DNA of 64,000 bases from a virus. Under the pieces are notes generated by a model. That model saw only the letters and a list, made by a program, of their open reading frames with translations. It was not told the DNA's origin and searched no databases. The position numbers were made by a program, and so were the translations under genes. Location: IMG/VR virus record IMGVR_UViG_3300023179_000044, positions 1 to 64,000 of that record, one strand, 5' to 3'. This document shows, in pieces, positions 10,557-64,000 of this stretch; the stretch's first letter is position 1; each line of letters starts with the position of its first letter.

Positions 10557-10564
10557 AGTTGGTT

Positions 10565-14084: not shown

Positions 14085-14129
14085 ATATTAGCAGAAAAAA
14101 AGTCTGTTGTGTTAATTTTTTGCTAATAT
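14085..14129. promoter_or_regulatory. inverted repeat between the RuvC-like and helicase genes
   Basis: ATATTAGCA(14085-93)/TGCTAATAT(14121-29). Each arm reads as an extended -10 (TGnTAATAT) on its own strand. Confidence 0.45.
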
Positions 14130-14131
14130 TT

Positions 14132-37537: not shown

Positions 37538-40500
37538 TTAGGTAAGGAGTCGGAGGAGCTTGCTCATCTCTGATTGGATTTCTCCTTGAGAATAAACATC
37601 TCCACCTGACATATAGGACTTTAGACTCTTTGTAGCAATGTCTGCATCCTCTTTACCGATCTTTGACTCGACTCTAGTGATCATTCCATCGATAAGATCC
37701 TTAAGTCCAGCTGGTAAATCGCTAAATCTTAGTTTGTCTGCCTCAACACCAAATGGTAGAGGGAGGTTTGATATAACTCGACCTAGTTCCCTAGCAGAGC
37801 TTTTAACATTTTCTAATGCCTGAGGATTTAAAGCTCCAGTATCTAATCTGTCAATAATACCTAAAAGCTCGGCACTAGCAGCAGCTGATTTTTCATAGTT
37901 CCCAGCAAAGTCTAGATTTTGTGCGGCTTCTGCTTGCTTTAAAGCCTCTTGTAGTCCAGCAACACCCAAATCCTGAGTTAATCTTGCAAGAACTTTACGA
38001 TACTTACCTTTAGCATCACGAGGTTGAGTTTTTGGAGTGTATTTAACTCTTCCTTGCTCGTCATACTTATCAGTTACGGTAGTCTTACCAGCTTTAATAT
38101 CTTCTGCTCTTTTAATTTCTTCTTCAGTTTGCTTTTCGGCTTCAGCCTTAGTTTCTTTTAATTCTTTTATATCTTCAGGAGAAATAAGATCAGGTTCAGC
38201 AAAAGTAGAAAGAGAAGCAATAACGGCTCTCATTCTTTCAATATTTTGAGAAGCTTGCATCGAGTGAGCATGCTTCCATTGATCTGGAATTAAATCAGCA
38301 GACTTAAGTTGACGAGCACGCTTCATTATATGGCGACGAACTACAGGACGATCTTCTTCTTTTGCACGACCAAATGCTTTAATGGCATTTTTTAAGTCAT
38401 CAGTATTACGAATTGGATATGATCCGTCTGGTAAAGCATGACCTTTTTTAGCTAAATCAGAACGTTCTTCTTCAGTAAACTTAGCTAATTCTGCAAGAGC
38501 AGATGCAACTATTGCTCTTTCACGTAGGTCTTCAACTTTTGCAGATGCAGCTATACTTTTTGACTTTTTCCATTCATCTGGAATAAGATTATACTTTCCT
38601 AGAGCTCGAGCACGCTTAATAATGTGCTTTTTAGCAGCAGCCACATCTTTTGCTCTACCATGAGCCTGAATTGCATTTTTAAGATCTTCGACATTTCGAA
38701 TAGGGAAAGAACCATCTTTCATGGCTTTTCCTTCTTTTGCAAGGCTATCTCTTTTTTCTCTAGAGATATATCCAAATTGAGTTTCAAATCTTGACATAAG
38801 ATCTGCAGAAGCAGCACTTAATTCATTAAGTTTGGAAGCTCTATCAACCAAACTTGAAACGTGCTGGCTCTTCATAATTGCAAAATAACTTGCACCAGCT
38901 GCAACCAAAGCCATAACTTTACCTGAAGCAAGCATTGCACGAGCAATAGGGAAGCCAGGAACATTCACCTGACATATAGCCACTAGTTCAAGAGAACCGT
39001 TAATTGGACGCCAGTCGCCAGAAGGAGCGGAAGCACGAAGTGCACGAATTTGCATTTCATTTGCATTAGGACGCAAAGAACCAGCTACCCAAATGCCATA
39101 TTCATCTTCTCCTGCGTGGACGTCTGCAATAGCCGATGCCGTATCATCATAATGTTTAGCTGCAGATACTGCATCTGCTTGGAGAGGAGCGTGGCCACCA
39201 GCCAATGTAAGCTGTCCAACTGGAATATCATTTCCATCAGCTGTTCTTACAACACCAGTATGAAAATAGGCATAGTTACTATTTGAACGAGGTGGTCTGG
39301 TTGAACGAGGCATACCGATGTGATTTACATGCCAAGCCGCAATATGCCCATATATTCTTCCGTTTGGCTCAACGGTAATCGGGGTTGGCTTAGTTAAAGC
39401 AGGATTAGTAAACCACTCGGTAGGAGGCGTCATTGGAATTTCTGCATCTAGAAATCCTGATGCTGTTAAAGCTTCAGCAGATACAAAAGAATCTAAAGAC
39501 TCTTCATATATTCCGTCTTCGGGGACCACTCTATCCTCCTGATTTTTAGTGGAATTGCTGTCAATAGAAATAGTGCATTCTTGAAATGCAGGCTTTGCTA
39601 CAATTGTAGCAGCCATTATACGTGCGTGATTTATAGTTAGTTTTTGCTTACCTAACTCATCTTCATTTGCATTTTCTGTTTTATGTTCTTTTGCTTCAAA
39701 TTGATCTAAATCCGCAGATACTCCACGAATAAACCCATTTTTAACTAATCTTTCGGCTTCACGACCATATGGTCCAGTATCAAATACCCCATAAGCATTT
39801 CCAATACCTTCAGGAGTTCTTTCCATGTAATCAATTCGACCAACAACTACAGAACCAGAGTGACCTTCAGCAGTTTTAATTTGCCAAAGAAGCGGGAGTG
39901 GAAGTTCTCTAATAGAAACTGCATCTTTTTTAAATTTTCTTCCGTCTCCAGATTCTATATCTTCTGGAATTAAAAGAGGAATAGAAAACTTTGCACCGTC
40001 AGTTTGAATAGATGCAGTAAGCCCTAAAATTCTTTCTTTTGCTGCATTTGCTGTAGCAATAAGATATGATTTTTCAATAATTTCATTGGTTATTGCATCA
40101 TTTACAGAAAAGAATTTTTTAAAACTATTTCCTCTACTACCTGAATTAAAACGACTTCCAGTGTAAACACCAGTCATTTCTTTATGACGAAGTTGACAAT
40201 ATCCCTTAGCACGGGGGCCAAGATACTTTGAGAGGTGACGAACACAGCGGGTCCAATCTCCAGGAACTCCCCACATAATTTTTGCTCCACCTACACCTCT
40301 AGTCCAGTAGTGCCTTAAATCTTCTGCATTTCCCCTATTTCTATCTAGACCCCCACCAGCAGTAAGAGCTTCATACTCTTTATCTCCACATTTTGCTAGC
40401 TCCTCTAGAGCATACTCAATCTCCATCTGAGGCTGCCAGTTAGATTCATATAATGGATCTTCTTCTTGCATAATTTCTTCATAGGACATAAGAAGATCTT

Positions 40501-49200: not shown

Positions 49201-51051
49201 TGGTGCTCTATTAATTTTTGTTGCAGCTTTTTGCTGAATAGTTAAAGATTTTCTAGCTAATTTGTGAGTTGTCATCGCATCTGAGTTATCACGTGGAAGC
49301 CTAGCTTTTGCATCAGCAGCATTTTTATTACCAAAAGTAAGTACTAATACACCATCATCTGGGCGTAGCCGACCCATGGCCCTAGCAATAGCTACCGATG
49401 TGGCAGTCTTTCCACAACCAGCTAATGCATCCATAACAGTATCTTGCTTAGCTAAAACAATCGCAGCAATTGCTCTTTTTTGTTCAGAGCTTGGTACAAA
49501 TCCTCCCGTATCTTGAGTAAAGTCCTGACCTGCCGCCAAAGCATCAAGTTCTTCGTTGCTCATCTTAGCTACTTCTTCAATAGCCTGTTTAACTTCTTCT
49601 ACAGTAGGTGGAGTTTCACCAGTAAGTTCTGGATCCTTCATTGGATCGCTTGTTGTTTCACTTGGAGGAATATTTAAATTCAAATCTCCGTCTTTTGCTG
49701 GAGGAGTGAATCCACCATCCCCCTCTGAAGTTTCTGGAGTCTGGATAGACGGAGTTTCTTCTTCTCCATCTTTAAAATCAACATCATCATCAGGAATATC
49801 TTCATATGAAGGACCGTAAGATCTTCCGCCTTTTCTACCCTTTGCTTTTTCAACAACTTCATCTACAGTTGGCGCGTTGCCATCCATCGCATCATCAATT
49901 GCTTCTTTAATGATGTCATCAGATGCTGGCTGAGATTCTTTATCTAATTTTGATGGTTCGTATTTTTCTGCCTCTGTAGTGTCAATAATTTCAGGTTCAG
50001 TAGTATCTGGAAGCGTGCCCGGCTCTTCATCGGTCAGTAGATTTTCAAAATATTCTTTATTTGGAATATCTTCTGTTGGAGACTCGGATCCATCTTTAAG
50101 TCCATCCATTACTTTAGAATTTAATAGTCTTCTAGCAGCTCTAAGTCTTTCAATTCTTTGTGTATCAGGATTTTCTTCAGCTTTTAAAGACTCAATTTTA
50201 TCTTTAAGAGCTTCATCTAATTTAAATATAGGAAACTTTGACTCAAGTTCTGATCTTAGTCGAGCAGCTTCCCCTTTTTTATTTTTTTCACCAGAAATTT
50301 TTCTATAGTTTGAATGTTCCTTACCAAAGTACTTCCAAGCATTACGATTAAAACTCTTTCGACCTGCCTCCCTAACAACATCCTCCACGCTCTGCTGTGG
50401 CTTCATTAGTGGTTCTTCTGGCTCTACTTGCTTAGATGGAACAACTTCTTCCGATGGCATGCTTTCGACTATGCGAGCAAGCTCTTCTTTTGACATCTTT
50501 CCTTCAGCACCAGGCTCAAGCTGAGCAAGAGGAGAGTTAGCTTTTTGCTCTTCAATTATTTGCTTTTCTTCATCTGTAGGAGTAGCATCAGCAAGTTCTA
50601 AGTCCTGAGGAGTAATTTCATCAATTAAAGTATTCTCATAGTCAAGAAAATCGTCCTGTGACCACTCTCTAGAAATAATAGGATTTCCCCTACTATCGAG
50701 TTTTTGACCTGGAGTAATGCCTTGACGCTTAAGAGCTTCTTCAGGAATAATACCTTCAATGGTTTCCATGGCATTTGTAGGAACGTGATAAACACCATCT
50801 CTAAAGCCTTTATCAGAAAAACCTTGAACTAAAATTCTAGCAAAACCCTTAATTTTATTAGAAGCTCCGATATACTTACCTCTAATAGGGATTGGTGGCA
50901 AACCATGCTTCAGCCTAGCTAGCATTAATTGTAGATGGCCCATTTCGGCCCACTGGCCGTGGCGATCACGAAGCTGGACCATCCAGAAACCCTTGTTAGC
51001 TCCTAAGCCAACTGCAATAATTACTTCTGGGTCTTTATTTTCTAATGACAT
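43270..51051 (-). CDS. 2,593-aa polyvalent protein: UvrD-like SF1 helicase + SH3-like modules + HExxH metallopeptidase
   Basis: ALAGCGKT, IIDEAQD, VGDTNQNIFTWRGA, LTTSYR, TRTN, STAHRGKGLEW, EETRIHYVSTTRAK; then AIHENTH...SEVMTMAFE. RBS AAGGA. Confidence 0.88.
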   Translation of the reverse strand: MSLENKDPEVIIAVGLGANKGFWMVQLRDRHGQWAEMGHLQLMLARLKHGLPPIPIRGKYIGASNKIKGFARILVQGFSDKGFRDGVYHVPTNAMETIEGIIPEEALKRQGITPGQKLDSRGNPIISREWSQDDFLDYENTLIDEITPQDLELADATPTDEEKQIIEEQKANSPLAQLEPGAEGKMSKEELARIVESMPSEEVVPSKQVEPEEPLMKPQQSVEDVVREAGRKSFNRNAWKYFGKEHSNYRKISGEKNKKGEAARLRSELESKFPIFKLDEALKDKIESLKAEENPDTQRIERLRAARRLLNSKVMDGLKDGSESPTEDIPNKEYFENLLTDEEPGTLPDTTEPEIIDTTEAEKYEPSKLDKESQPASDDIIKEAIDDAMDGNAPTVDEVVEKAKGRKGGRSYGPSYEDIPDDDVDFKDGEEETPSIQTPETSEGDGGFTPPAKDGDLNLNIPPSETTSDPMKDPELTGETPPTVEEVKQAIEEVAKMSNEELDALAAGQDFTQDTGGFVPSSEQKRAIAAIVLAKQDTVMDALAGCGKTATSVAIARAMGRLRPDDGVLVLTFGNKNAADAKARLPRDNSDAMTTHKLARKSLTIQQKAATKINRAPKFSKLVYTPEYLALHLGTDDTPGPGRNIDSEDAAFLVDKIISNFCNSPGREISKDNVIKAFSDAFDMPTEDFMEGDGQKYKIDFDKWLGWANKYWDDISQDNPKLGYWDKDKKKFVGNRRIAISQDHVLKLWQLSNPDLSKIKVGTKRLPAKLVIIDEAQDTNETVVDILKNNKGNIQLAHVGDTNQNIFTWRGAVNALNDAKNSAGAVVNLTTSYRMPDSLTGPGNAFLNILGDNKRLVGNPNVDDSNFPGIVGDIDELPFGPQRAHLTRTNLAAAEAIVGFIDDNRKVAALSQLYKELTNNYYYIQWLRADFKDRTKTPQMPNGEPIKDSDFRGITTLKEFQKRAERDPKSVVGRWYTFSTYADNTGKTRYDRLGEVIEDLLVDKSDTGGAVDSNLDASIGSSGTVWISKAGRGLNYEVDDFGVLTLSGEATYKEYVNGSPLKDYLKNRGWKYNGTEQHWEFSTRDDDDRQSELDAIAAYIPNRLEANDVIADVTLSTAHRGKGLEWDYVSLGNDFADPNSEDKKIAKRALDEEETRIHYVSTTRAKKGLFLGSLEWAMNYSGRDGLEKFNTKYNRPADYGMDGWDYRDKMAEEVRGPGNEEDGGSKPEKLSSSLGSTGRNGKPFIEQNDQETFISQGRVSGPTTPPKNFLDGWQQIGSKGRQQYSKLIDGVRWEVTVNKDGSALLRNRSDSSVPSKKYDSIDELAKNFGQQRSAGVRNNRELSKSKLSKYDPTGKIAKLIDSGADGDTVIEELFKDPNFIADVQSNKGGVSSLIAALEKLNNGRSIQSKNSSRFAKPKNASTVITPTPHPGGPSRFWVDNPARQDDPKKRVEGIDVSGIPKTALASVSTAKGEDIIAALLAINPNATIKQDGSIVWARELSFTEPKTSKDFAGKKTFFELRIVKNQDDNFRVVATYTDLNTGMSETFYHYAPHKSLTSLLGVSGPQALLEKYFLRDWKANPKGKTPKDQMRNERYYGGIRGGFKAQRTGSFENILRDPSSDDTSLSLRTPTEEALLILGGREQRLNKSKAKDTSQLYNQMRKGIPSFWDALDKGDKLAAVNALVSYVADLPDTQEARDVAKRVILETLRQKFAYLDEREFTDQFKEIVDFIENKVLDDAGIALAPHRLKSGEIAQVGMKVRWPNNIDPNGDAVGVIDHKLRVEHDAAGNFAYSNYVSVRFSDDPDEQPRVITTEKLIRVPDNTPLEKGRKTVRNDQLDVERALKNGDVVDFDKGLIFDKKAYDDNGDIVPIMKFNTDAIDFSYIDYNKYEDQIIGSPQKGTSTKASDISVGDTLYDPNGGRFGRVISKKSGTNKKTGSAVTKFTFDNGDSKTFNDTDEIISSSPLKAPEPSALTTLGKRAADIGIGMGSDGKTAKTLSIDTTQRTPIKDSSDTAVKPTEEARKAKDEVLAIGDELRKKIDQRTLENLQSQGISTSNAPDLDTFFNDLESNRVEKENEKVSAKNALDLERAKGMSKFKSVPSNLATISNANQKAIFDKMNAEGLIKNGPNGPEVDRDELKKRLDAAGLPYLATSVKTGVLGSNAIHFHAYDVMNDRAATAAYKTLQSKFKLAAKNHKDAQVSERRAIQTIGAAQRQGYIDTMNDEGIELDNVSLSEFNGLLFSEEKNLPVRPEDTFLSKVGFEEAISLLPSSMIRGLISRARNENKSIFIMSGVPRAFVSEDIKGFHIHLSNRPGMSQKGDGGTTATAIHENTHVIAELIPNMPQLQHAFIYDKGVQNAGTPEEMLPNVLRLAELLGPGYSDKEKALAIKGLASPYMSKVYERGITPESSHSEVMTMAFEDALSLPGIASRGKGLKAKIKDKDGKKKVIDVNYDPNTDTYTDSKGNPVDNIVQVFGRAKSDGVDNDVRNLAFGTLFALADRSGAVAKANSSVTTPKPSGSAQKAMQKGSIGSDNEGVISSIIDKFSGSDGTLSRSEYSQLINFLQNELEGEEASKYTEKELNSLRSYLSKITGL

Positions 51052-51963: not shown

Positions 51964-53210
51964 TAAATCTCCTTAGGAAGAAGGTCTGCATCCTGGCTAT
52001 CGTCAAGATAAACAGCCAAACGCTTTGCTCTGTTGAATGGATTTTCTCCCATTGTTTCAGCTCTGAGCCAAGCAGCCTTTAGTGCCGGAATAATCTCATA
52101 ACTAGCATCTGAATATTCAGCTAAAGCAAAGATTGCTTGTTCTTTATTAGTATACTCTGTTTCCGATAATAGTGTTACCGTCAACTCTCCAGAGTAGTCG
52201 TATTCATAAACTGTAGTTTGATCTTCAGGAGTTAAAGTAGGTTGATCTCCGGAAGCTCTAACTGATTTCTTTGATGATTTTGGATGTGATGGTGGAAGTA
52301 AATCATTATCAGTAGTGTATTTACTATTCTTTGGTGAACCAGATTTGAGCAAGTGTAAAAACGCATTTACACGAGCCATAGCCCATGAGTTGCGGTTTTG
52401 ATCTGGACGATGGGAAGAAGAAAAGGCTCCAGCACCACGGCGATAAACAGCTTTAACCATGGAAAGAGAAGCTTTTCTGTTTGACGTTTTATTAAATTCT
52501 TCTACTTTAGATTTTAAAGACTCTTCTACTTTTTTAGAAAAAGTAATTGACTTTGAGCCAGAAGCCGATCCTTCAGAATTTTTATCAGAACCTTTTATTT
52601 GGTCTTTTTTTGGAGCTGGTTTAGAGCCTGCAGTTGCAGTTACAGCTTCTTCTTTTTCTTTTGTAATTGGGCCCCCAACAACCCAGGCATTACAAGTTCT
52701 TGAAGCTGCACACTTAAAGTCAAATGCTTCACAGTAGCCAAGCTCAGCTGTATCTATAGCATCCCATGCATTCTGCTCACCAGAATCTCCAGCTGCTAAG
52801 CCACCTTCAATACAGTTAAGCATTTTTGGAGTACGAATAAACATAACACAGTTGCCGCAAACACTTTTTCTGGCTTCATCGCTAGATACATCCCATCTTT
52901 GAGCTTTAGACGCCCAGAAATCATCGTTAGGTTCTTTAGGATTTAAAGGTCCGTATTCAGCAGTTTTAATGGCTTTTTCTCTATTTGCAAGATTTATAGC
53001 AATATCTTGAGTAGCAGGGGGGCAATTATCATCGGATTCAACAGCCGCTGTTACAGGGGTTTTAACTTCAGTTTCTTGCTTTTTAGTAATATCAGAAAGT
53101 CTAATCCACTTACCATCTCTGTATACCTTCATCCCCTCAATATCAGACATACGTTCGCCGATAGAACTTCTTTTATCGTCGTTAGTTTTTTCAGTAATTT
53201 CTTCAGCCAT
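51963..53210 (-). CDS. modular head-region protein (Cys-rich HiPIP-like module + AVYRRG/WAMARVN module)
   Basis: Start moved to ATG 53210 (TATAAT 6 nt upstream). CPPATQD...CGNC..F...GYC...C....TC.AW and VKAVYRRGAGA...WAMARVNAFL. Confidence 0.75.
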   Translation of the reverse strand: MAEEITEKTNDDKRSSIGERMSDIEGMKVYRDGKWIRLSDITKKQETEVKTPVTAAVESDDNCPPATQDIAINLANREKAIKTAEYGPLNPKEPNDDFWASKAQRWDVSSDEARKSVCGNCVMFIRTPKMLNCIEGGLAAGDSGEQNAWDAIDTAELGYCEAFDFKCAASRTCNAWVVGGPITKEKEEAVTATAGSKPAPKKDQIKGSDKNSEGSASGSKSITFSKKVEESLKSKVEEFNKTSNRKASLSMVKAVYRRGAGAFSSSHRPDQNRNSWAMARVNAFLHLLKSGSPKNSKYTTDNDLLPPSHPKSSKKSVRASGDQPTLTPEDQTTVYEYDYSGELTVTLLSETEYTNKEQAIFALAEYSDASYEIIPALKAAWLRAETMGENPFNRAKRLAVYLDDSQDADLLPKEI

Positions 53211-53217
53211 TTTCTTA

Positions 53218-53424
53218 TTATACCTTATCGTCAGATTTTGGAATATAAACAGCTTCCCAATAGCCACGAGCTAGAATACTACCTAAAAACTGAGTATCAA
53301 ATTCTTCGCCATCAGCATTTTTAATATGAGCAAGATATTCTCCATTTTTATCTTTGCCATCATAAATCACTAATGAACCACTTTCTCTTTTATAGAGAAC
53401 AGTTCCTTTTTTAACTTCTTCCAT
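53218..53424 (-). CDS. small beta-rich protein (SILARGYWE motif), candidate immunity protein
   Basis: RBS AAGGA before ATG 53424. Second small gene behind the giant ART gene. Confidence 0.65.
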   Translation of the reverse strand: MEEVKKGTVLYKRESGSLVIYDGKDKNGEYLAHIKNADGEEFDTQFLGSILARGYWEAVYIPKSDDKV

Positions 53425-53435
53425 ATTATTTTCCT

Positions 53436-53648
53436 TTACCATCTATATCCGTCAGCTAAACTTTTATAGAAATTATCCTCTAATTCTATGTATTTATCTC
53501 CCGTGTAGTCTTCTACTTCAGAAGCAGCACCATTAAGAAGAACATTTTTATAAATAGGCATTTTAGTTTCAGTTATCCACAAATCGGGTGTAACTTCTCC
53601 TAGTAGTAGACCGGACTCATGTTTTTTAGTCATTTTTATTTTAATCAA
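53436..53648 (-). CDS. small acidic protein, candidate immunity protein
   Basis: ATGA overlap with the stop codon of the giant gene. Confidence 0.65.
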   Translation of the reverse strand: MIKIKMTKKHESGLLLGEVTPDLWITETKMPIYKNVLLNGAASEVEDYTGDKYIELEDNFYKSLADGYRW

Positions 53649-56600
53649 AATAGCCCTCCTCCAAAGGATCTAGGTTTAGAATATGGTTTTTTACTAGAGA
53701 ACTCCCATATTATACCCTTACTAGTCAACAAGTCAATCATTTCAACTGAAGGCATTTCATAAAATACAACTTTTTCAATGTCATCTAGTGTCACACCGCC
53801 ATGAATCTGGGCCTCAATTGAACCAAATTTAGCAAAATTTTCACTTTCAAAGAAGTTTTTCCCGGTAGCTTCTCTATAAATAGCAGCCATCTGAGTCAAA
53901 TAACTCAATTTAAATTCTGGATCAGTCAATGGAGTAGTTTCATCAAAGTTATTCAAAGAGTCTCTATCAGAAATGGTGGTTCTTTTCTTTACTTCTGGCT
54001 TCAGCACTACCTGGGCAGGCTCGGATCCTCCATAAATTTTTAAAGCATCTTCTGGTGGTGGTAGTGTAGCTGAAGCAAGCGATCCATATACTGGACGCCC
54101 TTCCAGTGGAGAGTCTCCCTCATAGCCAAAAGCCATGCTTTCATATAAAACACGTAAAGCACGATACTCCTCATTAGAGACTCCAGCCATAGAGCGTTTA
54201 GTCTCGTGTACTGTCTTTATTCGTCCTTCTTCTAGAACTTTTTCTAGAGCACGAGATGGCATAATAACTGATACAGCACCAGATTCAGAAAATTCTTTTA
54301 GATCTTTATTTGTAATTTCTACAGATTGTTCTGGATCAACCGTAACATCATAAACCTGACTATTTACTTCATCATCCGCATAGTCTGGAGTTGTTATGGC
54401 AAACTGATCTAGGTCTTCTTTACTTATTCTTGGACGTTGTCTAGTTAAACCTCGTTCTAAAAGTGCATAAGCTATAGTTGAACCATCAAAATTATTAGTT
54501 TTAGATGTCAATGCTTCCATTATGTCTCTGTAAAGTGGATTACTATGCGCTGCTATTAAAGCTTCAGTATATTTTTGATCGTTATCCATTTTGTCTTTAT
54601 AAAGATTTTTTATTCTTAACAATTCTTTTTCTTCATCTGTGTCGGGGCTATCTTTTTTAAATTGTATAGCTGACCTAATATATTCGTAAGTTTCTCTACC
54701 TTCTGGAGTTCTGTCAGTGTCCCAGGGGAGAGACAAATCCCTACCAAGTTCAGTTGCAATTTCTTTATAAGCTTTGTCGCTAGCATTGTGTTTTGCATCA
54801 TCAAGATTAGAAATAACCGAGCTTAGTTCTTGCCTAGCGTCGTCCGATAGTCGTGTTCCAGTTATATCTGTTCTATTTTTATTTTCTTGGTTCGGGTTTT
54901 TATTTTTATTTTTATATTCACTAGAAAACATGATAGGAATAGATATTCCAGCTTTATCTAACTCTTTTTGTATTCTTGCTTTTTCGGCTTCCATATCTGC
55001 TTTAGAACTATTTCTATCATCGAGAATAATAGTTTCTATTTCATCACTAGAAATTCCACCGTGAATCTGAGCTTCGGTGTAGCTGGGATGGTAAGCACCA
55101 TTTCCGTAATCAAGGTTATTTTCAACTTGCGGTAAATAGCCAATAATACCTGCAGCATATAAAGAATCAGGATCAATTTTTTCTCCAAGTGGGATAGCTT
55201 GGAAAGCCCTATCAAACGAATCGTTCATCGTGGCTGTAGATCTATCTCTGACTGATTTTTTAAGAATAAGCTTTACATCTCCGTAGCCAAAAGTTGGACT
55301 AGAGTCTATATCATTGAATCGATTACTAGTTCCAAATAGTCTTTTTGGAGCATCATCAGTTGGATAAACTAAATAGCCATAAATAGGTCTATTTTTTGGA
55401 TCTAAATCAATTGGAAGACCCATTAAAGCACGTTCGACCACCGTTCTTTTAGAATTGTCAAACAATCCATTAGAAAATTGAGTCTCAAACTGAGTTTTAA
55501 TTCTTTTATCTTCTAAAATTTTAGCAAAAGTTTTTTCATCTACCGCGACTACAATTTCGGCGTTATCTAATTTATCAGCAATTAAACTTAAATTACTGTC
55601 TATGAGATCAATACCCGAAACAATCTTAGGAAGATTATTTTCAGATACTTCATTTTTCATCTCTTTATACATCTCTAAAAGTAGCATGGTATTTTCATGC
55701 ATTGCATAATTATTAAGTTGCTCTTTTATTGCATCAAATTCAATAGGAGAAAGTTTATCTTTATATATTTTATTAAATTCTTTTATATCAAAATATATAA
55801 ATCTATCTTTATTTCTTTTAATCCAATCTTGAGCAAAATCTATGGCTTCTTGTGAATGACCATATGAAGTACGGTCAAGATAATCAACAGTCAAAACAGT
55901 GGACATTACTTGACCCGTAATATCTTCAGATTTATTTGGTATAGGGTCCCCATCAGAGTCTGGCTCAGTCAATTTCTTTATAAACTTTTTATCTGGATCT
56001 ATGTATTCTTTAATAGAATCCATTGCAGAATAGTTTTTAAGTAAAGATATAATTTCTTCTTGAGTAGATGGAATAGCTACTTTTGGTTTTTGTTGTTCTT
56101 CAAGTTCATCAAGGCTTGGCCTTTCGCGAGTGACCTGAACTACTTCTACAGGAATAGAAATTCCATAATTTTTCATAAGATCTTCAATATTTTTAGCAAC
56201 CTCTAGAAGAGCCTCTTTATCATTATCACTGTAAGCAGGTATAACAAATTTTTCAATATCATCTAAAGAAACACCACCATGAATCTGAGCCTCAAGATAG
56301 TTTGATCCAAAATCTCCAAGAGTACTTGGCGGTATTTCTAACACTCCAGATTTTAAAACAGAGTCTCTGTCAACTTTAGTCAAATCTGATGCCACGAACT
56401 CGGCTGAAAGACTATCCTTAGCTGTAAATCTTGTTCTATTTTTTATTGATGATTTAAGTACTACCCTAACATTTCCGTATTGATATAAATTAGGACTTTC
56501 TAGTCTATAGTCCGTTGAGAATGGATTTAGATTACGATACAATTCTGGAGTACTCTCTAGTCCTAGATATCCATAAATAGGTCTAAGACTGTCATCAATG

Positions 56601-59600
56601 TCTATAGGAACACCGTTTACACTGAATTCTGAAATTGCTCTTTTAATTGGATCATAAAGGCCCCTACTTTTAGCAGTTTCAAATTGAGATTTTATTCTTC
56701 CATCTTTAAATAAATTTTCAATAAACTTTTCATCGATAGCAATAGTAACAGAAGCATTTTTTATAGCATTAGATAAATCTTCAGCTGCATCCATCATTTT
56801 TCTTACAGATTTAGCATCTTCACTTTGTCCAGGAAAAGCTTTTTCATATTCAAGAAACATCTCATCAACGGCTTTTTTATTTACATAATCTTGATAAGTT
56901 GTTATTGCATTATAAATAGCATCTTTTTTCCACATAAAGTCATTAGAGGTTCTTTCATCAATACTTTCAGCGGCAGCAAATAGTTTTTCTTTTAATTTTT
57001 TTCTATTTATATATAAAAATTTTTCTTTATTTTTTTCAAACCACTCTTTAGCAAAATCAAATACCGTCTGATCTGGCTCTTTATATCCTTCATTTACTTT
57101 TAATGCTTCATCTCTGTCTTTTAATCTTTTTAATATGCTATATGGGTCATAATAAAATGTTGGATCATCTGGATCACTAGCATCATCATATGCTTTTTTA
57201 TCGGTAAAAATAATTGACTTATCCGACAGATATTTTTCTAGCTCGTCCTCTATGGAATAAGGAATGGCAGAAGCATTAATTTCATTAGAAGTAAAGTCTT
57301 CTTTTTTAACTGGTTCTTTAGGACGTTTATATATTTTGTCATACTCTTCAATATCGGCATTAATTTTGTCTGATAATTCTTTTATAGTATTAGAATCAAT
57401 TTTTTGATCTTCTCTATTAATGAGCTCATCTAAAAGATCCTCGGTAGGCTTGCTAAGTCTAGCATCCTTAAAATATTTGTATACATCATCACGTTCTTGT
57501 GGGCTAGCAAAGGTGACGTCAGTTACACCGTCCGACTTATACTGCTCTTCAGGCCACTCAGGTAAGAATTGCTTTTTTCCATACTTTACCCTGATTCTTA
57601 GGGTTCCGTCAGCATCTTCAAAAACTTCAGAAACTGTAAACTTGGCAGCTATAGGGAGAATAACTTCTTTTTCTCTGTCATAAACAGTTCCGTCTGGCTC
57701 GATAGGGGAGCCTGTAGCACCTTTTTCTGTTTTAATTTCAAAAATAACCGCTGAATTAGTATTTGAATCTTTATTATTTTGATCTAGAATTGCAAAGCCC
57801 TCGGCCACTTCAGGGTCTAGTGAGGTCGAAGTAAAAATATCACTAGATATAACTTCATCCCCTGGCTTTAGCTGCATCAACTGAGCACGTAATTCAGAGT
57901 CTCTTCGGGCTATAGTTCCTCTATAGAGTTTTGTTCCTTCTGGAATTTCTTCAGATTCAGTTAGCTTTTTTAAATTAGAAACTAATTTATTAACACTCTC
58001 GGAAGTATCGGAATCAAACTCTTCACCTTTTATAAAATCTTTTATTAATAAATACTGACCTTTTTGATAACCAGTGATTGCTTCTTTTTCTTCATTTGTT
58101 CTATCTGGAGTTGGAAGTTGATCTATGCCACCCATATCAGGAGATTCGGGCTGGATCTGCCATATAGGATCGCCATCAGGAGGGCCAAAACCAGCTGGAA
58201 TACGAGCAAATGATGTAAAGAATATAGGATTTAATACAGTATTTTCATCGTATCGACCACTCGACTCTGAGATTTTAATTCTAATAGGAGTTGGTCGGCC
58301 ACCGTTATCTCTTGCAGCAATAAGTTTTACTACGTCATCGCTATTATTTAAAGAATATTTTTCAGTATTTGGATTATAAAGTATTTCAATTGGCTCCCTA
58401 AATCCATTATCCTTAATATCTTTAGCGACTTCACTAGCTTTAGTTTTATTTTCCCCAGTGACAAGACCGAAATCAGCATTATCTACTTTAGAAAGCACAT
58501 CTCCTGGACGTACATATCCAACAGTGCCGAGGTTTCCTCCATTAAGAATTCCAAATGGAGCACGTTTTGTTCCTGGTTTTAAATCTATATTTAAGTTAGG
58601 ATCTTCTTGCTTAGAGTACTCGGATGTTTTTTGTCTTACTGCATCTAAGTATGGCTCATTAAGTGTTACTTTTCTGTATAAACCATATTTATGTAAAAGA
58701 CTTTGTAAAGTCTCTAACCCCTCATCAGAGTTACCATATTCATTAATTAAATTAATAGCTTGAGTGTCATATATTTCACCTCTAAGCGAAGCTTTTATAT
58801 CACGAAGTTTTTGTCTACCCCAAATACTTAGATTTGATAATTTTTCTGAAGAATTTTCTTTTTTAACTGTTGTATTTGTATTTTTATATTTTAGTTTGAT
58901 TGTTAAATTACTATTAGAATCCTTTTCTACACCGATAACTTCTAGCTGCGCTCCAATTGGTAAAACCACCTCTTTTTCTAAATCATACATATCCCCACTG
59001 GCTCCCACTACAGCACCAGTTGCACCATTTTCTGTTGTAATATCAAATACTATTCTTTTTGTTGGAGCAACTCTTTGATCACCAAGAGCAGCGAAATCTA
59101 TAGCAACACTTTTATCTCTTGTAGTAGAAGTAAATGTATTATCTGACGATACAATATCGCCAGGTTGTAGTTGGTTAAATTGAGCGTACTTATCACTAGA
59201 AAATACGGCAAAAGTTCCTCTATAGAGTTTTGTTCCTTCTGGAAGCTCTTCTGAAGTAGTTACTTTTTTTAGATGCGGTATTGCTTTATCAAATTTTGCT
59301 TTTTGTTCTTCAGTAATAGTCCCATTAGTTGGATCTGCCATATATTTTGCTAAACGATAATATGAAGGACTTTGATAAAGTTCTATACTTTCATTTTCTT
59401 CATCAGTTCTAGGTGGTATTGGTAAATCAAATTCGTCATTAGCTGTTTCTGGAGTTTTCTCTTCTGATTCTGGATATTTATTTAAAATAAACTCGCGACG
59501 AGCTTTTAGTTTTTCTTTAAGTTCTTTATTATCAGCTGGGTCAGAAATAAACTTATCAACAAGTTCATCTATTTTTTCTGGAGTAATAGCGCGAAGCTTT

Positions 59601-62600
59601 TCGACACTTTTTCTTTCAGCCTCGGGACTCATATTAGAAAAAAGTTGACCAGTAGTATTTTTCTTGTCTTTAAAAGTCTCTAATTCTCCTACTTCATTAC
59701 CAAAAGCCGATCCCTTACGCTCGCCTCTGGCACGATATAGAAGAGAACCTCCGGAGTCTATACGAACTGGATTTCCATCTTTGTCATAACTTAAATTGTC
59801 GTATCCAGTACCAACAACGTCCCAGTTGCCTAGCCATGCATCTATTGCAAACCCGTCGAATGCCGGATCGTTGGGGTCCACCCCATTATTTATTCTTTCT
59901 GCTACTGAAGTTAAAGGAGTGGTTTTCCAATCAGTGTAAGTTACTTGTTTACTACGCATTAGGCCTTTTTTAACTTCTAATGCGTCGATTCCGGCTTCTT
60001 TATATAATGCAGAAGCGAGTGCTTCATTATCTCCACGGTTTTTATCTTGGATCTTTACATAGAAAATATTTCCAGTATTTGGATCTTGATATTTTCCACC
60101 AGGATTAGAACCAAGAGGTCCAGAAATTTGTTTAAAGTTAGTAAAATCTAACTCGGGGGTTTCAGATTTTTTAAGCTCTTCACTTAACTCGGGTTTTAAC
60201 TTATTTTCTGCAGATTCTATAATAGGTTCTATTTTTTCTACATTTTTAAGACGAGAGTCATTTGGATCGTGGCCACGGCTGACAAAGAAAGGTTTACCTA
60301 TTAGCTCTTGCATAGAAGAGAGGACCTTAAGCGATCTGTCTACTTCATCTCCAGCTTCTGGATTATCAAAGTATTTTTCAGCTCCTCCTCCAATATAATG
60401 AAGTGATTCACCCTTTAAACGCCATTTTTGATTACCATTTTTATCTTTAAATGATTCAAATAATCTATAAAACCTATCAGAACGAGGTGTCTCCGAGCCC
60501 CAGTCGCGTTCCCATGCACCTTCACCATAAAGTTCGTCATATTTAGCTGGAAGAGCACCTTTTGTTAAACCATTTTCTTCATAAAAAGATGCCCAGTCGC
60601 GGCCATCACCAAAAGGACTGCTATCTAGTGCATAGTAATCGAACTGGCCTAGTGGTTTAAGATGTCTAAATGGGCTTCCTCCACCACTTCTATCAAACTT
60701 CTCATTTGGGCCAACCTTTAGATCCTTTAAATTAAACCACGGAGCATTTTCTGGGTTTGGAATCTCTAAATCACCAAGTCTAGTAACTCTACCTGGAATT
60801 GACGTAACTTCGGGGCTTATTACAGCACCAATTTCATCAGAAATACGGCTAAAACCAAGTAGACCAGTTATTTCATCGGGTCTAGCTTTAATTTCATAAC
60901 GACCAGTATTTTTCCCTTTATCTCCTTTTCCACGTTCAACGTTATAATCAAAAGCCATATACCTATCAAGTGAAGCGTAACCAGCGGCGGCATCGGCTTC
61001 TGTATCTTTATGGTGAATATTATTTCTATAAAAAGAAATAAATCCTCCAGGCTTAACTCCTAAAAATTTTTCAGCATAAAGTTGATTAACTTTTTTGGCT
61101 AAAGGTGAAATATCTTTTGGATCGCTATACTTAGTCATTAAATCTGTGGCAATATGATTACTTAGATAATCCCAGAAAAGATTTTTATCGGTAAGTTCGC
61201 CATATACCGTTTTTAAAAGTTCAGGGTTTTCTTCTTTAATCTGATCGAAGAGACTCCTATACTGAGCACCAACAACTTCTTCAATATCTTTTGGACTTCT
61301 AATTAAAGGGAAGCGACCCTTTTTTCTAAGATTGTTTGCGGCAACAGAACGAATATTCTTAAGCGCGTCATCCCCAGAAACTTCATCAACCAGCTGGTCT
61401 GGAGAGACCGGCTTTATAAAATTAAGCCCTTCGCTTGCTAAGTGTAAACGTATACGTTCATTCTGTTCTTCAGCAATAGCTGCCATTTTTGGAGATAACT
61501 CGGTAACAAATGGTCCTAGTTCTGGTCTTTCGGATTTTTGTTTTACAAGTTTATCTGCAATATCAGCTGGAGATTCTTTTGTAACTTCTGGAGATGGTGG
61601 CGAAGTTTCTTTTGGTGGTTCTCCTTCTGGTGCTTTAGGCGGATTTCCTTTAATACCAACTTCACCTTCTACTTCACGCTTAGGAGCAGGCTTAGGATTA
61701 GCGGAAGTAGCGCCTAGAGTCTGTCTAGGAACACCAACATAGTCATTATATTCATTTGCAAGTTTAAGAACATCCTCATGATCAAGATCAACAACGACAA
61801 CATTTAAATCAATTGGCTTATCCCCCATCTCCTGCGCAGCCAAAGCACCAGCCCAACGGTGGTGACCATCGATGACATACCCGTCACGGCTTACATATAG
61901 AACTGCTTGATCAAACTTTGCTCTACCTTCTGGAGTTAGGAATGCCTGAGCAATACCTCCAACATTTCCCATATCCATTTCTGACTGAACTGGTGTAAGT
62001 TGATCTGGTGTTTTTACATCTCTAGTGTGTTTGATATTAAGTTCATCAAGAATTTTTTCAAATTGTTTTTGATCAGCATCAGTACCAAGCTGCGGCATTA
62101 ATCCACGTTCAGCACCTAAATTGTTATTTGTATAGTTTTCTTTACCATACATCTTCATATTCGTAACATCTACACCATTGGTTCGATATTTACGAGTTAG
62201 ACTTTGCATTTCTTCACTACTTAAAGGACTTCCATTTTTAGATCTTAAAAATGAAAGTAATGAATTAGCTCTTTCCTCATTTAAAAGCCCAGAACTTATA
62301 GCTCTGCGGAGTCTGTTGTATTGCCTCGGCTCTAATTTCTTTAGTTCATCATCTAGTTCTCTAGCTAGTTCAGCTGCTCCTCCTATAGCATTCTCATCTG
62401 CACCAATATACTTTCTATCTGCAGCTGCAATTTTTAGAGCTTCTACCCAAGTATCTTTGTCTACTTCAATAAATCCGCCATCATAAAGAACTTCATACGC
62501 TTCCTGAGGATCAGTTATATCTGTTCTTACCTCTGATGGGTCAATTTCGTTTAGATCCCAGAAACCGCCCTCGTGTCTAGTTGGAGCTGTGGGGCTAGAC

Positions 62601-64000
62601 TCATCTTTAAATTCAGGCTTAAACTCTACTTTTCTTCCATAGCCGTCAAGTACTCGATTATTTTGAATATCACGAATACGTCGATTTGCCTTAGTTTTAT
62701 CAACGTGGGTGAGTTTATCAGCTGGAATTATATTTCCACTAGAGTCAACGTACCACTCTAAAGGCTTACCATCAGTATCGGTTTCACCCTCTACATCAGG
62801 TATCTCATATATAGGCTCTTTTTTCCTCGGCTCCGGAGGTGGTTTTATTGGCGGTGACTCGGATGGGTTTCCTTTGATACCAACTTCACCAGCAACTTCA
62901 CGGTCAGGAACTTCTTTTTCTTCAAATTTTTGGCTAAGGTCAGCCTTTTTAACACCAGCAAAATCAGTAAACTCGTTGGCTAAACGGATACCTTCGCCGT
63001 GATCCATATCAACTACAACAACATTTAGTTCAATGTCTTCCCCAAGCTCGTCCTGAGCAATAAGTGCAGCAGCCCAGCGGTGGTGACCATCAATAACATA
63101 CCCATCTCTAGTTACATAAATGGGGAGTTTTCTAAGTTTTTCTCTTGACTCCGGATTTAAGAAACCCTGAGCAATTCCACCAACCTTACCCATGTCCATT
63201 TCTGACTGAATAGGTGTCAACTGGTCAGGAGTCATCAGTCCATCGGTTATTTTAATACCATTGTCAGCGCAATATTTTCTAAATAACTTAGCGTCGTTGT
63301 CATCTCCAAGTTGTGGCATCAAACCACGAGGAGCACCTAGGTTGTTCTGGGTATAGTTAGTCGAATTACCCATCTGAAGATTTGTAAGGTCGACTCCGAG
63401 ATTACGGAACTTCCTATGTACTTGCCTCATTTCGTCTTTAGTTAAGGCTTCGCCGTTCTTACCGTTAACTAGGTCTATTAGGGCTCTGGCTTTTTCTTCA
63501 TTTAAGTCGGATGGCTTCACAGCACGAAGAATTTTTGCTTTTTGTTTTGTTGGAAGTTTATCTAAAGTATCTAGAACTTCCTGAGCAAGTGCAGATTTTC
63601 CGATCGCATTCTTGTCTTTTTTTATGTACTTGGAATCCGCTGCTGCAATTCTAAAAGCGTTCCAAGCAATTTCTGGAGCAGCTTGACAAACTTCTCCGTC
63701 ATACATAAGCTCATACAGTTCTTGAGCATCTTTTACGTCTCTAATTACATCGGCTTCAGTAATTTCATTTTTATCAATGAAGCCCCTCTCGTGTCTTACT
63801 TCTTGAACTCTAGGATCAGCTGATTCACGATTTTCAAATTTAAATTTTACTTCTCGACCATTTCCGTCAAGAATTCTATTATTTTCTATATCTCGAATAC
63901 GAAGATTTTCTGGAATTCTGCGAGATGGGTCTAGTTTATCTTCACTAATAACCATTCCATCTTCATCAACCCACCAAGCTAGAGATGGATTTTTAGAAAT
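53645..64000 (-). CDS. >3,450-aa polyvalent protein (ParB-like x2-3, ADP-ribosyltransferase x2-3, HipA/PI-kinase-like, DUF3626-like x3); N-terminus outside the window
   Basis: The frame is open to base 64000 (ISKNPSLAWWVDEDG-M...), and the listed Met is internal to a repeat (compare LEWYVDSSGNII). DGHHRW x2; LYRG/STT or STS/EKE x2; GSN..YVK..NE..NWD..N..IDSG; EAQIHGG x3. Confidence 0.9.
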   Translation of the reverse strand: MSKNPSLAWWVDEDGMVISEDKLDPSRRIPENLRIRDIENNRILDGNGREVKFKFENRESADPRVQEVRHERGFIDKNEITEADVIRDVKDAQELYELMYDGEVCQAAPEIAWNAFRIAAADSKYIKKDKNAIGKSALAQEVLDTLDKLPTKQKAKILRAVKPSDLNEEKARALIDLVNGKNGEALTKDEMRQVHRKFRNLGVDLTNLQMGNSTNYTQNNLGAPRGLMPQLGDDNDAKLFRKYCADNGIKITDGLMTPDQLTPIQSEMDMGKVGGIAQGFLNPESREKLRKLPIYVTRDGYVIDGHHRWAAALIAQDELGEDIELNVVVVDMDHGEGIRLANEFTDFAGVKKADLSQKFEEKEVPDREVAGEVGIKGNPSESPPIKPPPEPRKKEPIYEIPDVEGETDTDGKPLEWYVDSSGNIIPADKLTHVDKTKANRRIRDIQNNRVLDGYGRKVEFKPEFKDESSPTAPTRHEGGFWDLNEIDPSEVRTDITDPQEAYEVLYDGGFIEVDKDTWVEALKIAAADRKYIGADENAIGGAAELARELDDELKKLEPRQYNRLRRAISSGLLNEERANSLLSFLRSKNGSPLSSEEMQSLTRKYRTNGVDVTNMKMYGKENYTNNNLGAERGLMPQLGTDADQKQFEKILDELNIKHTRDVKTPDQLTPVQSEMDMGNVGGIAQAFLTPEGRAKFDQAVLYVSRDGYVIDGHHRWAGALAAQEMGDKPIDLNVVVVDLDHEDVLKLANEYNDYVGVPRQTLGATSANPKPAPKREVEGEVGIKGNPPKAPEGEPPKETSPPSPEVTKESPADIADKLVKQKSERPELGPFVTELSPKMAAIAEEQNERIRLHLASEGLNFIKPVSPDQLVDEVSGDDALKNIRSVAANNLRKKGRFPLIRSPKDIEEVVGAQYRSLFDQIKEENPELLKTVYGELTDKNLFWDYLSNHIATDLMTKYSDPKDISPLAKKVNQLYAEKFLGVKPGGFISFYRNNIHHKDTEADAAAGYASLDRYMAFDYNVERGKGDKGKNTGRYEIKARPDEITGLLGFSRISDEIGAVISPEVTSIPGRVTRLGDLEIPNPENAPWFNLKDLKVGPNEKFDRSGGGSPFRHLKPLGQFDYYALDSSPFGDGRDWASFYEENGLTKGALPAKYDELYGEGAWERDWGSETPRSDRFYRLFESFKDKNGNQKWRLKGESLHYIGGGAEKYFDNPEAGDEVDRSLKVLSSMQELIGKPFFVSRGHDPNDSRLKNVEKIEPIIESAENKLKPELSEELKKSETPELDFTNFKQISGPLGSNPGGKYQDPNTGNIFYVKIQDKNRGDNEALASALYKEAGIDALEVKKGLMRSKQVTYTDWKTTPLTSVAERINNGVDPNDPAFDGFAIDAWLGNWDVVGTGYDNLSYDKDGNPVRIDSGGSLLYRARGERKGSAFGNEVGELETFKDKKNTTGQLFSNMSPEAERKSVEKLRAITPEKIDELVDKFISDPADNKELKEKLKARREFILNKYPESEEKTPETANDEFDLPIPPRTDEENESIELYQSPSYYRLAKYMADPTNGTITEEQKAKFDKAIPHLKKVTTSEELPEGTKLYRGTFAVFSSDKYAQFNQLQPGDIVSSDNTFTSTTRDKSVAIDFAALGDQRVAPTKRIVFDITTENGATGAVVGASGDMYDLEKEVVLPIGAQLEVIGVEKDSNSNLTIKLKYKNTNTTVKKENSSEKLSNLSIWGRQKLRDIKASLRGEIYDTQAINLINEYGNSDEGLETLQSLLHKYGLYRKVTLNEPYLDAVRQKTSEYSKQEDPNLNIDLKPGTKRAPFGILNGGNLGTVGYVRPGDVLSKVDNADFGLVTGENKTKASEVAKDIKDNGFREPIEILYNPNTEKYSLNNSDDVVKLIAARDNGGRPTPIRIKISESSGRYDENTVLNPIFFTSFARIPAGFGPPDGDPIWQIQPESPDMGGIDQLPTPDRTNEEKEAITGYQKGQYLLIKDFIKGEEFDSDTSESVNKLVSNLKKLTESEEIPEGTKLYRGTIARRDSELRAQLMQLKPGDEVISSDIFTSTSLDPEVAEGFAILDQNNKDSNTNSAVIFEIKTEKGATGSPIEPDGTVYDREKEVILPIAAKFTVSEVFEDADGTLRIRVKYGKKQFLPEWPEEQYKSDGVTDVTFASPQERDDVYKYFKDARLSKPTEDLLDELINREDQKIDSNTIKELSDKINADIEEYDKIYKRPKEPVKKEDFTSNEINASAIPYSIEDELEKYLSDKSIIFTDKKAYDDASDPDDPTFYYDPYSILKRLKDRDEALKVNEGYKEPDQTVFDFAKEWFEKNKEKFLYINRKKLKEKLFAAAESIDERTSNDFMWKKDAIYNAITTYQDYVNKKAVDEMFLEYEKAFPGQSEDAKSVRKMMDAAEDLSNAIKNASVTIAIDEKFIENLFKDGRIKSQFETAKSRGLYDPIKRAISEFSVNGVPIDIDDSLRPIYGYLGLESTPELYRNLNPFSTDYRLESPNLYQYGNVRVVLKSSIKNRTRFTAKDSLSAEFVASDLTKVDRDSVLKSGVLEIPPSTLGDFGSNYLEAQIHGGVSLDDIEKFVIPAYSDNDKEALLEVAKNIEDLMKNYGISIPVEVVQVTRERPSLDELEEQQKPKVAIPSTQEEIISLLKNYSAMDSIKEYIDPDKKFIKKLTEPDSDGDPIPNKSEDITGQVMSTVLTVDYLDRTSYGHSQEAIDFAQDWIKRNKDRFIYFDIKEFNKIYKDKLSPIEFDAIKEQLNNYAMHENTMLLLEMYKEMKNEVSENNLPKIVSGIDLIDSNLSLIADKLDNAEIVVAVDEKTFAKILEDKRIKTQFETQFSNGLFDNSKRTVVERALMGLPIDLDPKNRPIYGYLVYPTDDAPKRLFGTSNRFNDIDSSPTFGYGDVKLILKKSVRDRSTATMNDSFDRAFQAIPLGEKIDPDSLYAAGIIGYLPQVENNLDYGNGAYHPSYTEAQIHGGISSDEIETIILDDRNSSKADMEAEKARIQKELDKAGISIPIMFSSEYKNKNKNPNQENKNRTDITGTRLSDDARQELSSVISNLDDAKHNASDKAYKEIATELGRDLSLPWDTDRTPEGRETYEYIRSAIQFKKDSPDTDEEKELLRIKNLYKDKMDNDQKYTEALIAAHSNPLYRDIMEALTSKTNNFDGSTIAYALLERGLTRQRPRISKEDLDQFAITTPDYADDEVNSQVYDVTVDPEQSVEITNKDLKEFSESGAVSVIMPSRALEKVLEEGRIKTVHETKRSMAGVSNEEYRALRVLYESMAFGYEGDSPLEGRPVYGSLASATLPPPEDALKIYGGSEPAQVVLKPEVKKRTTISDRDSLNNFDETTPLTDPEFKLSYLTQMAAIYREATGKNFFESENFAKFGSIEAQIHGGVTLDDIEKVVFYEMPSVEMIDLLTSKGIIWEFSSKKPYSKPRSFGGGLF
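57914..59244. repeat. exact 32-nt direct repeat at 57914-57945 and 59213-59244
   Basis: AGTTCCTCTATAGAGTTTTGTTCCTTCTGGAA in both ART domains (encodes PEGTKLYRGT). Confidence 0.9.

Follow-up and report, generated by a model that had tools for sequence, protein, structure and literature searches.

A 3,612-residue polyvalent protein encoded beside the portal gene of an uncultured tailed actinophage: a putative capsid-loaded array of host-directed enzymes

Precedents for proteins that are injected by phages are T4 Alt, a single-enzyme protein of ~680 amino acids (aa), P1 DarB and the 3,500-aa virion RNA polymerase of N4. Alt is carried in the capsid, is injected with the DNA and modifies the host RNA polymerase, and a general model of head-packaged, injected polyvalent effectors has been published (PMC5512222, PMC9503650). 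Polyvalent proteins hold 2–15 effector domains per chain, with ADP-ribosyltransferase (ART), ParB-like and kinase domains being typical, and are predicted to be packaged and injected (PMC5512222). The subject of this report is the gene for a giant protein of this type in IMG/VR virus record IMGVR_UViG_3300023179_000044, of which bases 1–64000 (the window, i.e., the whole 64,000-nucleotide stretch that was analysed) were taken from a viral record of 103,878 bp with a completeness estimate of 61%. The giant is probably a polyvalent effector of a tailed actinophage, which would be loaded into the capsid by means of a constant head region and then injected to act on the host.

The giant resembles the published polyvalent proteins (PMC5512222) in being many-domain, phage-encoded and located among virion genes, and neither in size nor in number of domains does it fall outside the published range. 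Nine domains were recognised by hidden Markov model (HMM) or by fold, namely two ParB-like domains, a core of probable ART fold, a kinase, two ADPrib_exo_Tox domains and three copies of DUF3626; a sequence-only reading of the window had described a polyvalent protein with about ten enzymatic domains, and nine of its ten domain calls stand. The acidic Pro/Glu-rich linkers by which it had separated the modules are likewise visible in the translation. The differences from the described proteins lie in the constant head, which is outside the Pfam and PHROG families, in DUF3626, which is absent from the main text of that paper, and in the kinase: the kinase family described there is without a C-terminal subdomain and is that of Verrucomicrobia-Chlamydia and Bacteroidetes phages, whereas the kinase of the giant is CtkA-like with a helical C-lobe. 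The chain also has no metallopeptidase, methylase or helicase, the helicase being found in a neighbouring giant. With T4 Alt it shares an ART of the R-S-E type encoded with the head genes, whereas the giant joins six ART-superfamily domains of three families to a kinase and to ParB-like domains. As in the MuF-effector fusions (SPP1 gp7 / Mu F, PF04233), a constant N-terminal part encoded next to the portal gene is followed by variable C-terminal modules; in contrast to those fusions there is no match to MuF by Pfam or PHROGs, and the constant part is itself enzyme-like, with a predicted ART fold and R-S-E motifs.

The open reading frame (ORF) runs through the window without interruption for 3,451 codons and leaves it at its end, and in the flank of the parent record the same frame leads to an ATG at 64483, which gives a full protein of 3,612 aa (a residue number within the window plus 161 is the full-length residue number). 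The GC content was 31–47% per 2-kb interval and about 37% overall, and a 10.8-kb open frame at this AT-rich composition is not a chance ORF. The genes on the same strand are, in order, TerL, the portal gene (phrog_776, E 1e-105), the gene of a 151-aa phrog_3636 protein and the giant. Further along this strand are genes for a 434-aa and a 271-aa protein, for a second giant (2,593 aa), whose helicase is of the UvrD type by Pfam and phrog_1967, and for a 643-aa protein; a prohead-protease polyprotein of 1,012 aa comes next, and then the major capsid protein, tail proteins and adaptors.

The constant head consists of a ~130-aa N-module with the motif QxRDxxG and a core of ~390 aa. When window aa 811–1280 were used in an HMMER search, 69 representative clusters of metagenomic proteins were retrieved, 62 of them at E<1e-30, with proteins of 173–4,470 aa in which the core was mostly located at residues 100–550. 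The N-termini of these core-bearing relatives match the 161 residues of the giant that lie beyond the window, and the ParB-like repeats of the giant are thus an insertion between N-module and core. Of 27 related IMG/VR loci, 24 have the gene with N-module and core next to TerL and the portal gene: 15 show the order TerL, portal, 151-aa gene and N-module/core gene, two that are truncated have portal, 151-aa gene and N-module/core gene, and in seven the N-module/core gene is directly upstream of TerL. In the subgroup with the gene upstream of TerL (L100–L108), the versions are mostly short, at 450–1,300 aa. The 151-aa gene itself (phrog_3636, 'DNA binding protein'; parent record 64487–64942, minus strand) is, in nearly all of the related loci, the next gene after the portal gene, and separates it from the N-module/core gene wherever the latter follows the portal.

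The N-module is shared within the record. Its HMM matched one other protein, the 2,593-aa helicase giant, over ~100 aa at the N-terminus (E 7e-22), and Q-x-R-D-x-x-G is invariant in the four N-modules that were aligned. The sequence-only reading, which saw the protein without its N-terminus, had named a MuF-like domain or the QxRDxxG motif as what might be found there, and the motif is indeed present in the residues upstream of the window. The pattern Q.R[DE]..G[KRQH] occurs three times in the minus-strand ORFs of the record, as compared with 0.045 occurrences expected from shuffles, and all three occurrences are in head-module proteins, i.e., both giants and the prohead-protease polyprotein. 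This suggests that the QxRDxxG N-module is a capsid-loading tag, and an address shared by prohead-bound proteins, together with a gene position beside the portal, would be expected of capsid cargo. When the N-module was modelled in complex with the portal monomer, the score was 0.01, in a run without controls that speaks neither for nor against such an interaction. Together the two giants would amount to >6,200 aa of putative tagged cargo.

The second constituent of the constant head, the core, is probably an ART-fold domain over window aa 870–1081, as judged from its predicted structure. The AlphaFold2 (AF2) model had a pLDDT >90 over most of residues 55–445, and in a VIA fold search ~40 of 50 rows were members of the ART superfamily that aligned to residues 60–271 of the model, among them diphtheria toxin, CNFy domain 4, ART2.2, Scabin, C3 and PARP16, as well as LT, pertussis toxin, ParT, Tpt1 and Arr. 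All 14 rows given a second look were ART-superfamily, with Z <=3.8 throughout, a value that is depressed by the 470-residue length of the model. Foldseek with the same model gave nothing at E<=0.001 against the PDB or BFVD. The motifs of this copy are FYRN (R992), GYASLD (S1010) and SDE (E1056); across 26 core sequences FYRN is invariant, the second motif reads GYxS[LT]D, and the third is [E/Q]-D-E, its last Glu being invariant and its first residue replaced by Ser here. The order R-S-[Q/E]xE is that of the Arg-type ARTs. The ART-like segment which the sequence-only reading had placed in this region coincides with the R/S/[E/Q]-D-E stretch of the core, while the assignment is qualified by the low Z and by hhalign, which found no signal between the core and the ART1/ART2 family. 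Neither N-module nor core had a match in Pfam, PHROGs or NCBIfam. By tblastn against 50,697 deposited phage records the core was found in none and the N-module in DSL-LC01 only; the core was also absent from 185,579 prokaryote genomes in a search that reaches close relatives only. A single-sequence PDB search with the core returned chance matches only, and the N-module profile a spurious designed-repeat protein only.

The effector modules behind the core are listed in Table 1. Both ART1 and ART2, predicted by the sequence-only reading, exceed the cut-off of Pfam ADPrib_exo_Tox (PF03496) with 46.1 and 50.6 bits (cut-off 23.4), and the catalytic Arg, S-T-S and E-x-E motifs are intact in each. 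ART2 matched Vis (E 1.5e-6) and Vip2 in the PDB and, weakly, the Alt-like phrog_26651 (E 3.8e-4). The two domains are 43% identical by internal BLASTP. At the catalytic-Arg strand they share a run of ~32 identical bases inside an 86-nt patch (57908–57993 and 59207–59292) that is 78% identical, and this run could be a site of gene conversion or a recombination point. Between them is a domain, here called mid, which directly precedes an ART2-type domain as a fixed two-domain cassette in the relatives (P0012, P0017, P0026, L091, L094). A degenerate ParB-like segment had been proposed at 58280–58440 within it, and this call has kept the status of a weak lead: mid matched nothing in Pfam, PHROGs or NCBIfam, it has no DGHHR-type motif, and hhalign detected no relationship with the ParB part of the repeats, leaving a weak language-model lead (0.91) to a cluster in which 26% of the members have ParB_N.

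For the kinase-like domain a confident AF2 model was obtained (pLDDT 92.3, pTM 0.90), which bears out the sequence-only call. The best Foldseek match was Helicobacter pylori CtkA (3akl, E 1e-7, TMq 0.68), ahead of Vps34, PI3K, PI4K and ordinary protein kinases; there were 420 PDB matches at E<=0.001, and those listed are kinases. The domain shares with CtkA, HipA and the PI3-PI4-kinase-like proteins the fold, a Gly-rich loop, and Lys, Glu, catalytic-loop Asp/Asn and metal-binding Asp residues, whereas the identity is just 15–17% and the domain sits in polyvalent proteins of many phage groups. From 76 IMG/VR loci that were collected, 46 sequences were aligned, and K36, E46, D107, N112 and N122 were invariant, with D121 and D135 conserved in >=90%; these residues would serve as the ATP-binding Lys, the helix-C Glu, the catalytic-loop Asp/Asn and the metal-binding Asp. 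A search restricted to similar protein length returned one match, since this domain nearly always forms part of a longer protein. Neither Pfam nor NCBIfam had a matching family, a single-sequence PDB search gave chance matches, and Legionella LepB appeared as a weak profile match. Phages whose hosts are Enterobacteria, Aeromonas, Pseudomonas, Gordonia and Mycobacterium also carry these kinase and DUF3626 modules. The kinase is found, 33–38% identical, in FelixO1-like phages (Aeromonas, Yersinia, Morganella, Escherichia and Pseudomonas), and also in Gordonia phages; in Aeromonas phage ST4 (OR261032, CDS 83422–86955) it is part of a protein of 1,177 aa with the annotation 'ADP-ribosyltransferase'.

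The C-terminal third class of modules is DUF3626, the domain of the Salmonella effector SopF (PMC6682159). SopF belongs to the ART superfamily according to its crystal structure, and its E325 binds the N-ribose of NAD+ (PMC11937434). The three DUF3626-like copies of the sequence-only reading were confirmed by Pfam and internal BLAST: the whole protein scored 66 bits with DUF3626 (PF12294), copy 1 alone 34 and copy 3 22 (cut-off 27), the units are 25–35% identical to one another, and internal BLAST links copy 3 to them at 1e-13. When the three copies were made into a profile, it matched the SopF chains 7dn8/7dn9 marginally (E 0.0026), in an alignment that does not include the region of the nicotinamide-binding tyrosines Y224 and Y240. 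The Glu of EAQIHGG, which is present in all three copies, aligns with YIEAHIHG of SopF (7dn8) and is an Asp in 7dn9. A single-sequence PDB search with copy 2 gave chance matches only, and the linker at aa 2146–2310 had no match in Pfam or PHROGs. The giant and SopF (PDB 7dn8/7dn9) thus have the Pfam family and the conserved Glu in common. SopF, however, is a secreted effector of 374 aa whose activators are eukaryotic ARF GTPases and whose target is the V-ATPase, whereas the giant has three diverged copies within a phage protein, and bacteria have neither this activator nor this target. Since DUF3626 is the SopF family and SopF is an ART, the four classes of the sequence-only reading reduce to three enzyme superfamilies, with six ART domains, two ParB-like domains and one kinase.

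The two repeats that are inserted into the constant head, A1 and A2, probably belong to the ParB/Srx superfamily, a membership that is not proven because neither Pfam nor the PDB matches by sequence (in the PDB, A1 as a single sequence gave chance matches only, and a profile of the ParB part gave none). That there are two repeats of ~390 aa, as the sequence-only reading had it, was borne out by internal BLASTP (aa 7–396 against 414–804), with 47–57% identity per aligned segment and 51% over 392 aa. The repeats matched the ParB-like phrog_1033 (E 7e-12) in two stretches, of which aa 288–334 is the best, the ParB-like phrog_8071 and phrog_2159, and the unnamed phrog_2859; the Atlas lead was ParBc_2 (0.89). 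YVIDGHHRWA, an Arg motif of the DGHHR type, is invariant across A1, A2 and the single A repeat of another uncultured phage (L081). Of the 740 positions of phrog_2859, 164–267 match the 643-aa protein of the record and 291–499 the repeats. Each repeat opens with RIRDIxNNR[IV]LDGxGRxVxFK (~63860–63900 and ~62640–62680; window aa 34 and 441), which resembles a stretched QIRDAKGRWAKMF tag by eye only and is not detected by the N-module HMM.

Table 1. Coordinates of the giant, its modules and the further copies of the tag motif (positions are those of the window unless stated otherwise)
Feature	Position	Strand	Remarks
Giant ORF, window part	53645..64000	(-)	residues 162-3612 + stop codon
First 161 residues of giant	parent record 64001-64483, beyond window		N-module with WRRQIRDAKGRW
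Repeat A1	62813..63982	(-)	window aa 7-396; probable ParB/Srx-like part ~aa 215-340, RGLMPQLG + YVIDGHHRWA
Repeat A2	61589..62761	(-)	window aa 414-804
Conserved core	60221..61408	(-)	window aa ~865-1260; predicted ART-fold part ~60758-61393
Atypical protein-kinase-like domain (CtkA / HipA / PI3-4K type)	59456..60160	(-)	family-conserved K (FYVK), E, DAWLGNWD, DN, D of RIDSGG
ART1	58886..59425	(-)	window aa 1526-1705; LYRG, FTSTT, EKE
Mid domain	58136..58870	(-)	window aa 1711-1955; no assigned fold
ART2	57581..58117	(-)	window aa 1962-2140; LYRG, FTSTS, EKE
DUF3626 copy 1	56147..57070	(-)	window aa 2311-2618; RPIYGYL, EAQIHGG kept
DUF3626 copy 2	54932..55852	(-)	window aa 2717-3023; best DUF3626 stretch of whole protein
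C-terminal 411-aa module with DUF3626 copy 3	53648..54880	(-)	homology 53762-54307, window aa 3232-3413
N-module (QLRDRHGQW) of second giant	50704..51018	(-)	N-terminus of 2,593-aa UvrD-helicase giant, ORF 43270-51051
QPRDAKGKY	38000..38026	(-)	within 1,012-aa prohead-protease polyprotein, ORF 37538-40576; third copy of tag motif

What follows the core varies widely among the relatives, from nothing at all in proteins of 450–590 aa to long arrays of kinase, Vip2-type ART, mid+ART and DUF3626 modules. Homologous giants of 1,800–4,470 aa with the same module types were found on independent contigs; one of 4,285 aa (P0012) has the order core, DUF3626, mid, ART and kinase with several further ART-type matches, and another of 2,722 aa (P0004) has core, kinase, DUF3626, ART, ART and DUF3626. 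The nearest deposited genome is that of DSL-LC01 (OQ999401), in which a 466-aa protein with the N-module and one DUF3626 lies directly behind the portal, and further on is a giant of 3,289 aa that has the same kinase and a region resembling the N-module; the post-portal slot there thus has one enzyme domain and no core, whereas here it encodes 3,612 aa with about ten domains. A megablast of the giant gene against phage genomes returned zero matches. The same post-portal slot is occupied in L081 by a different giant of at least 3,364 aa (5796–15887, plus strand), which is truncated where the contig ends; it has a single ParB repeat of the A type, gives a weak DUF3626 signal, and is without N-module or core.

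The comparison of modules between genes bears on how the array arose. A2 shares 59% identity with the lone A repeat of L081 as compared with 51% with A1, and the 411-aa C-terminal module with copy 3 is 64–67% identical to the C-termini of two other proteins (P0009/P0028) as compared with 25–30% to copies 1 and 2, so that modules have been exchanged between genes as cassettes. ART1 and ART2 are each as near to the ART of P0012 as to one another. DNA identity between the repeat copies is 70–78% and confined to short patches, which makes the duplications old and excludes an assembly artefact as their source, in agreement with what the sequence-only reading had held. Its proposal of serial duplication within the gene fared less evenly, i.e., the paralogues are real and old, whereas A2 and copy 3 are nearer to modules of other genes. 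The sequences indicate that the array has grown by duplication plus cassette exchange among polyvalent genes.

The host is very probably an actinobacterium, because the record has a gene for a WhiB-family regulator (6934–7410, minus strand, 58.8 bits), a marker of actinobacterial phages, and because the relatives of its capsid protein are in actinophages. For the major capsid protein, identity is 63% with the counterpart in Actinomycetia phage DSL-LC01, which was assembled from a metagenome (PMC10611076), and 43–51% with the counterparts in large Microbacterium, Arthrobacter and Gordonia phages. The low GC, at 36%, makes a freshwater low-GC actinobacterium the more likely host; the Mycobacterium smegmatis context suggested by the sequence-only reading was thus right as to the actinobacterial side, whereas the low GC favours a freshwater lineage. 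As to the remaining neighbours, two small ORFs of 70 and 74 aa (53436–53648 and 53218–53442, both minus strand) lie right behind the stop codon of the giant, the first of them abutting it. The 434-aa protein (51963–53267, minus strand) carries DUF5824 and is kept behind the polyvalent gene in L099, L100 and DSL-LC01, the DSL-LC01 counterpart being 347 aa long (E 1e-62). An 82-aa module, phrog_6439, is common to the C-terminus of the 643-aa protein (40545–42476, minus strand) and the N-terminus of the protease polyprotein (37538–40576, minus strand).

As a capsid-loaded effector, the tag-bearing giant would be taken into the prohead via its N-module, possibly cut at the Pro/Glu-rich linkers, and ejected into the host cell together with the DNA, where the injected enzymes would modify host macromolecules within the first minutes of infection. 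Host proteins would be ADP-ribosylated by the ARTs with the R-S-ExE motif (ART1, ART2 and probably the core), in the way that Alt modifies RNA polymerase, and phosphorylated by the CtkA/HipA-like kinase, and the three SopF-type ARTs may add further targets. For the ParB/Srx-like domains the predicted role is that of an NTP-dependent nickase or nuclease, or else DNA binding. Diverged paralogues and swapped cassettes would widen the range of targets, or renew it, in the face of host defences.

Several points weigh against this sequence of events. MuF (PF04233), named by the sequence-only reading as a possible N-terminus, was not found by the Pfam and PHROG HMMs in the N-module or the core, in the giant or in its short relatives, and neither was any other known head-incorporation domain. 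A 400-kDa protein needs to be unfolded or cleaved in order to leave through the tail, and there is no recognisable peptidase in the giant. The ParB-likeness of A1 and A2 comes from PHROG profiles only, the Pfam ParB families having given no match, and the best-studied relatives of several of the domains (SopF, CtkA, Vip2) act on eukaryotic cells.

The question of cleavage leads to an unlikely alternative, according to which the giant is a polyprotein that is made late, is cut by the prohead protease or by a predicted metallopeptidase of the neighbouring giant, and acts in the infected cell without being ejected, e.g., in superinfection exclusion, in blocking abortive-infection defences or in late host shutdown. 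Pro/Glu-rich linkers do lie between all modules, a protease polyprotein is encoded nearby, and polyvalent proteins have been proposed to undergo processing by peptidases (PMC5512222). The conserved position beside the portal gene and the N-module shared with head-module proteins nevertheless fit capsid loading more easily, and enzymes of the cytoplasm need neither a conserved head fusion nor expression together with structural genes.

The eukaryotic affinities of the domains give rise to the main rival to keep, even though its probability is lower still: a 'Trojan horse' toxin against grazers, in which the ART, kinase and SopF-like domains would be aimed not at the bacterial host but at eukaryotic predators (flagellates, ciliates) that swallow infected cells or virions. 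This idea was published for the Vip2-like ARTs of freshwater actinophages (PMC6802176), and the best-characterised relatives of three of the domain types act on eukaryotic targets, i.e., SopF with the V-ATPase (PMC11937434), CtkA/PI3-4K-like proteins and Vip2. The giant, however, has no signal peptide, translocation domain or receptor-binding (B) component; its gene lies in the packaging and head module, its N-module is shared with the helicase giant and its motif with the protease polyprotein. Moreover, the occurrence of the kinase and DUF3626 modules in phages of the bacterial genera and groups listed above speaks against a grazer as the target, and ParB-like domains have no obvious eukaryotic role.

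Less probable again is that the giant is mainly a structural internal head or ejection protein (inner body, ejectosome) with enzyme-like domains as inactive relics. Its size and its position in the head module would suit such a role, as would the Ser at the first Glu of the core's ExE-type motif (SDE), but the catalytic residues are kept in nine of nine recognisable enzyme domains, and in homologues across relatives of 35–45% identity, and the effector arrays vary freely among relatives, which is unlike a structural role. That the record is a metagenomic viral contig would allow a chimeric contig or several genes read as one, an explanation left with a negligible probability by the absence of a stop in 10.8 kb of AT-rich DNA, the repeats that are 70–78% identical as DNA, and the homologous giants on independent contigs.

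With the capsid-loaded, injected effector as the preferred reading, three features were not found in the literature and databases searched: a constant non-MuF N-module and ART-fold core as the scaffold of a family, SopF-type ARTs as a recurrent phage cargo that is triplicated here, and a CtkA-like kinase as a module common to many phage groups. The advance is that of a new family and scaffold and not of a new principle, because head-packaged polyvalent effectors were already published. More tentatively, and with less than even confidence, it is proposed that the N-module may be an undescribed capsid address that loads both giants and the protease/scaffold polyprotein, that the core may be the counterpart of T4 Alt, and that the cassettes may be swapped like the tips of polymorphic toxins, which together would make up a MuF-independent delivery platform in a large group of uncultured actinophages.

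The first minutes of an infection are decided by the effectors that a phage injects, and new protein-modifying enzymes and anti-defence tools can be obtained from them. The locus would be a natural catalogue of the modules that one phage lineage finds worth injecting, among them three SopF-type ARTs, of a family so far studied as an effector of a human pathogen, and a kinase whose family also occurs in FelixO1-like, Gordonia and other phages. By means of the constant head, hundreds of variable effector arrays can be traced in metagenomes, and the QxRDxxG tag, if it is a capsid-loading signal, could be employed to load foreign proteins into capsids.

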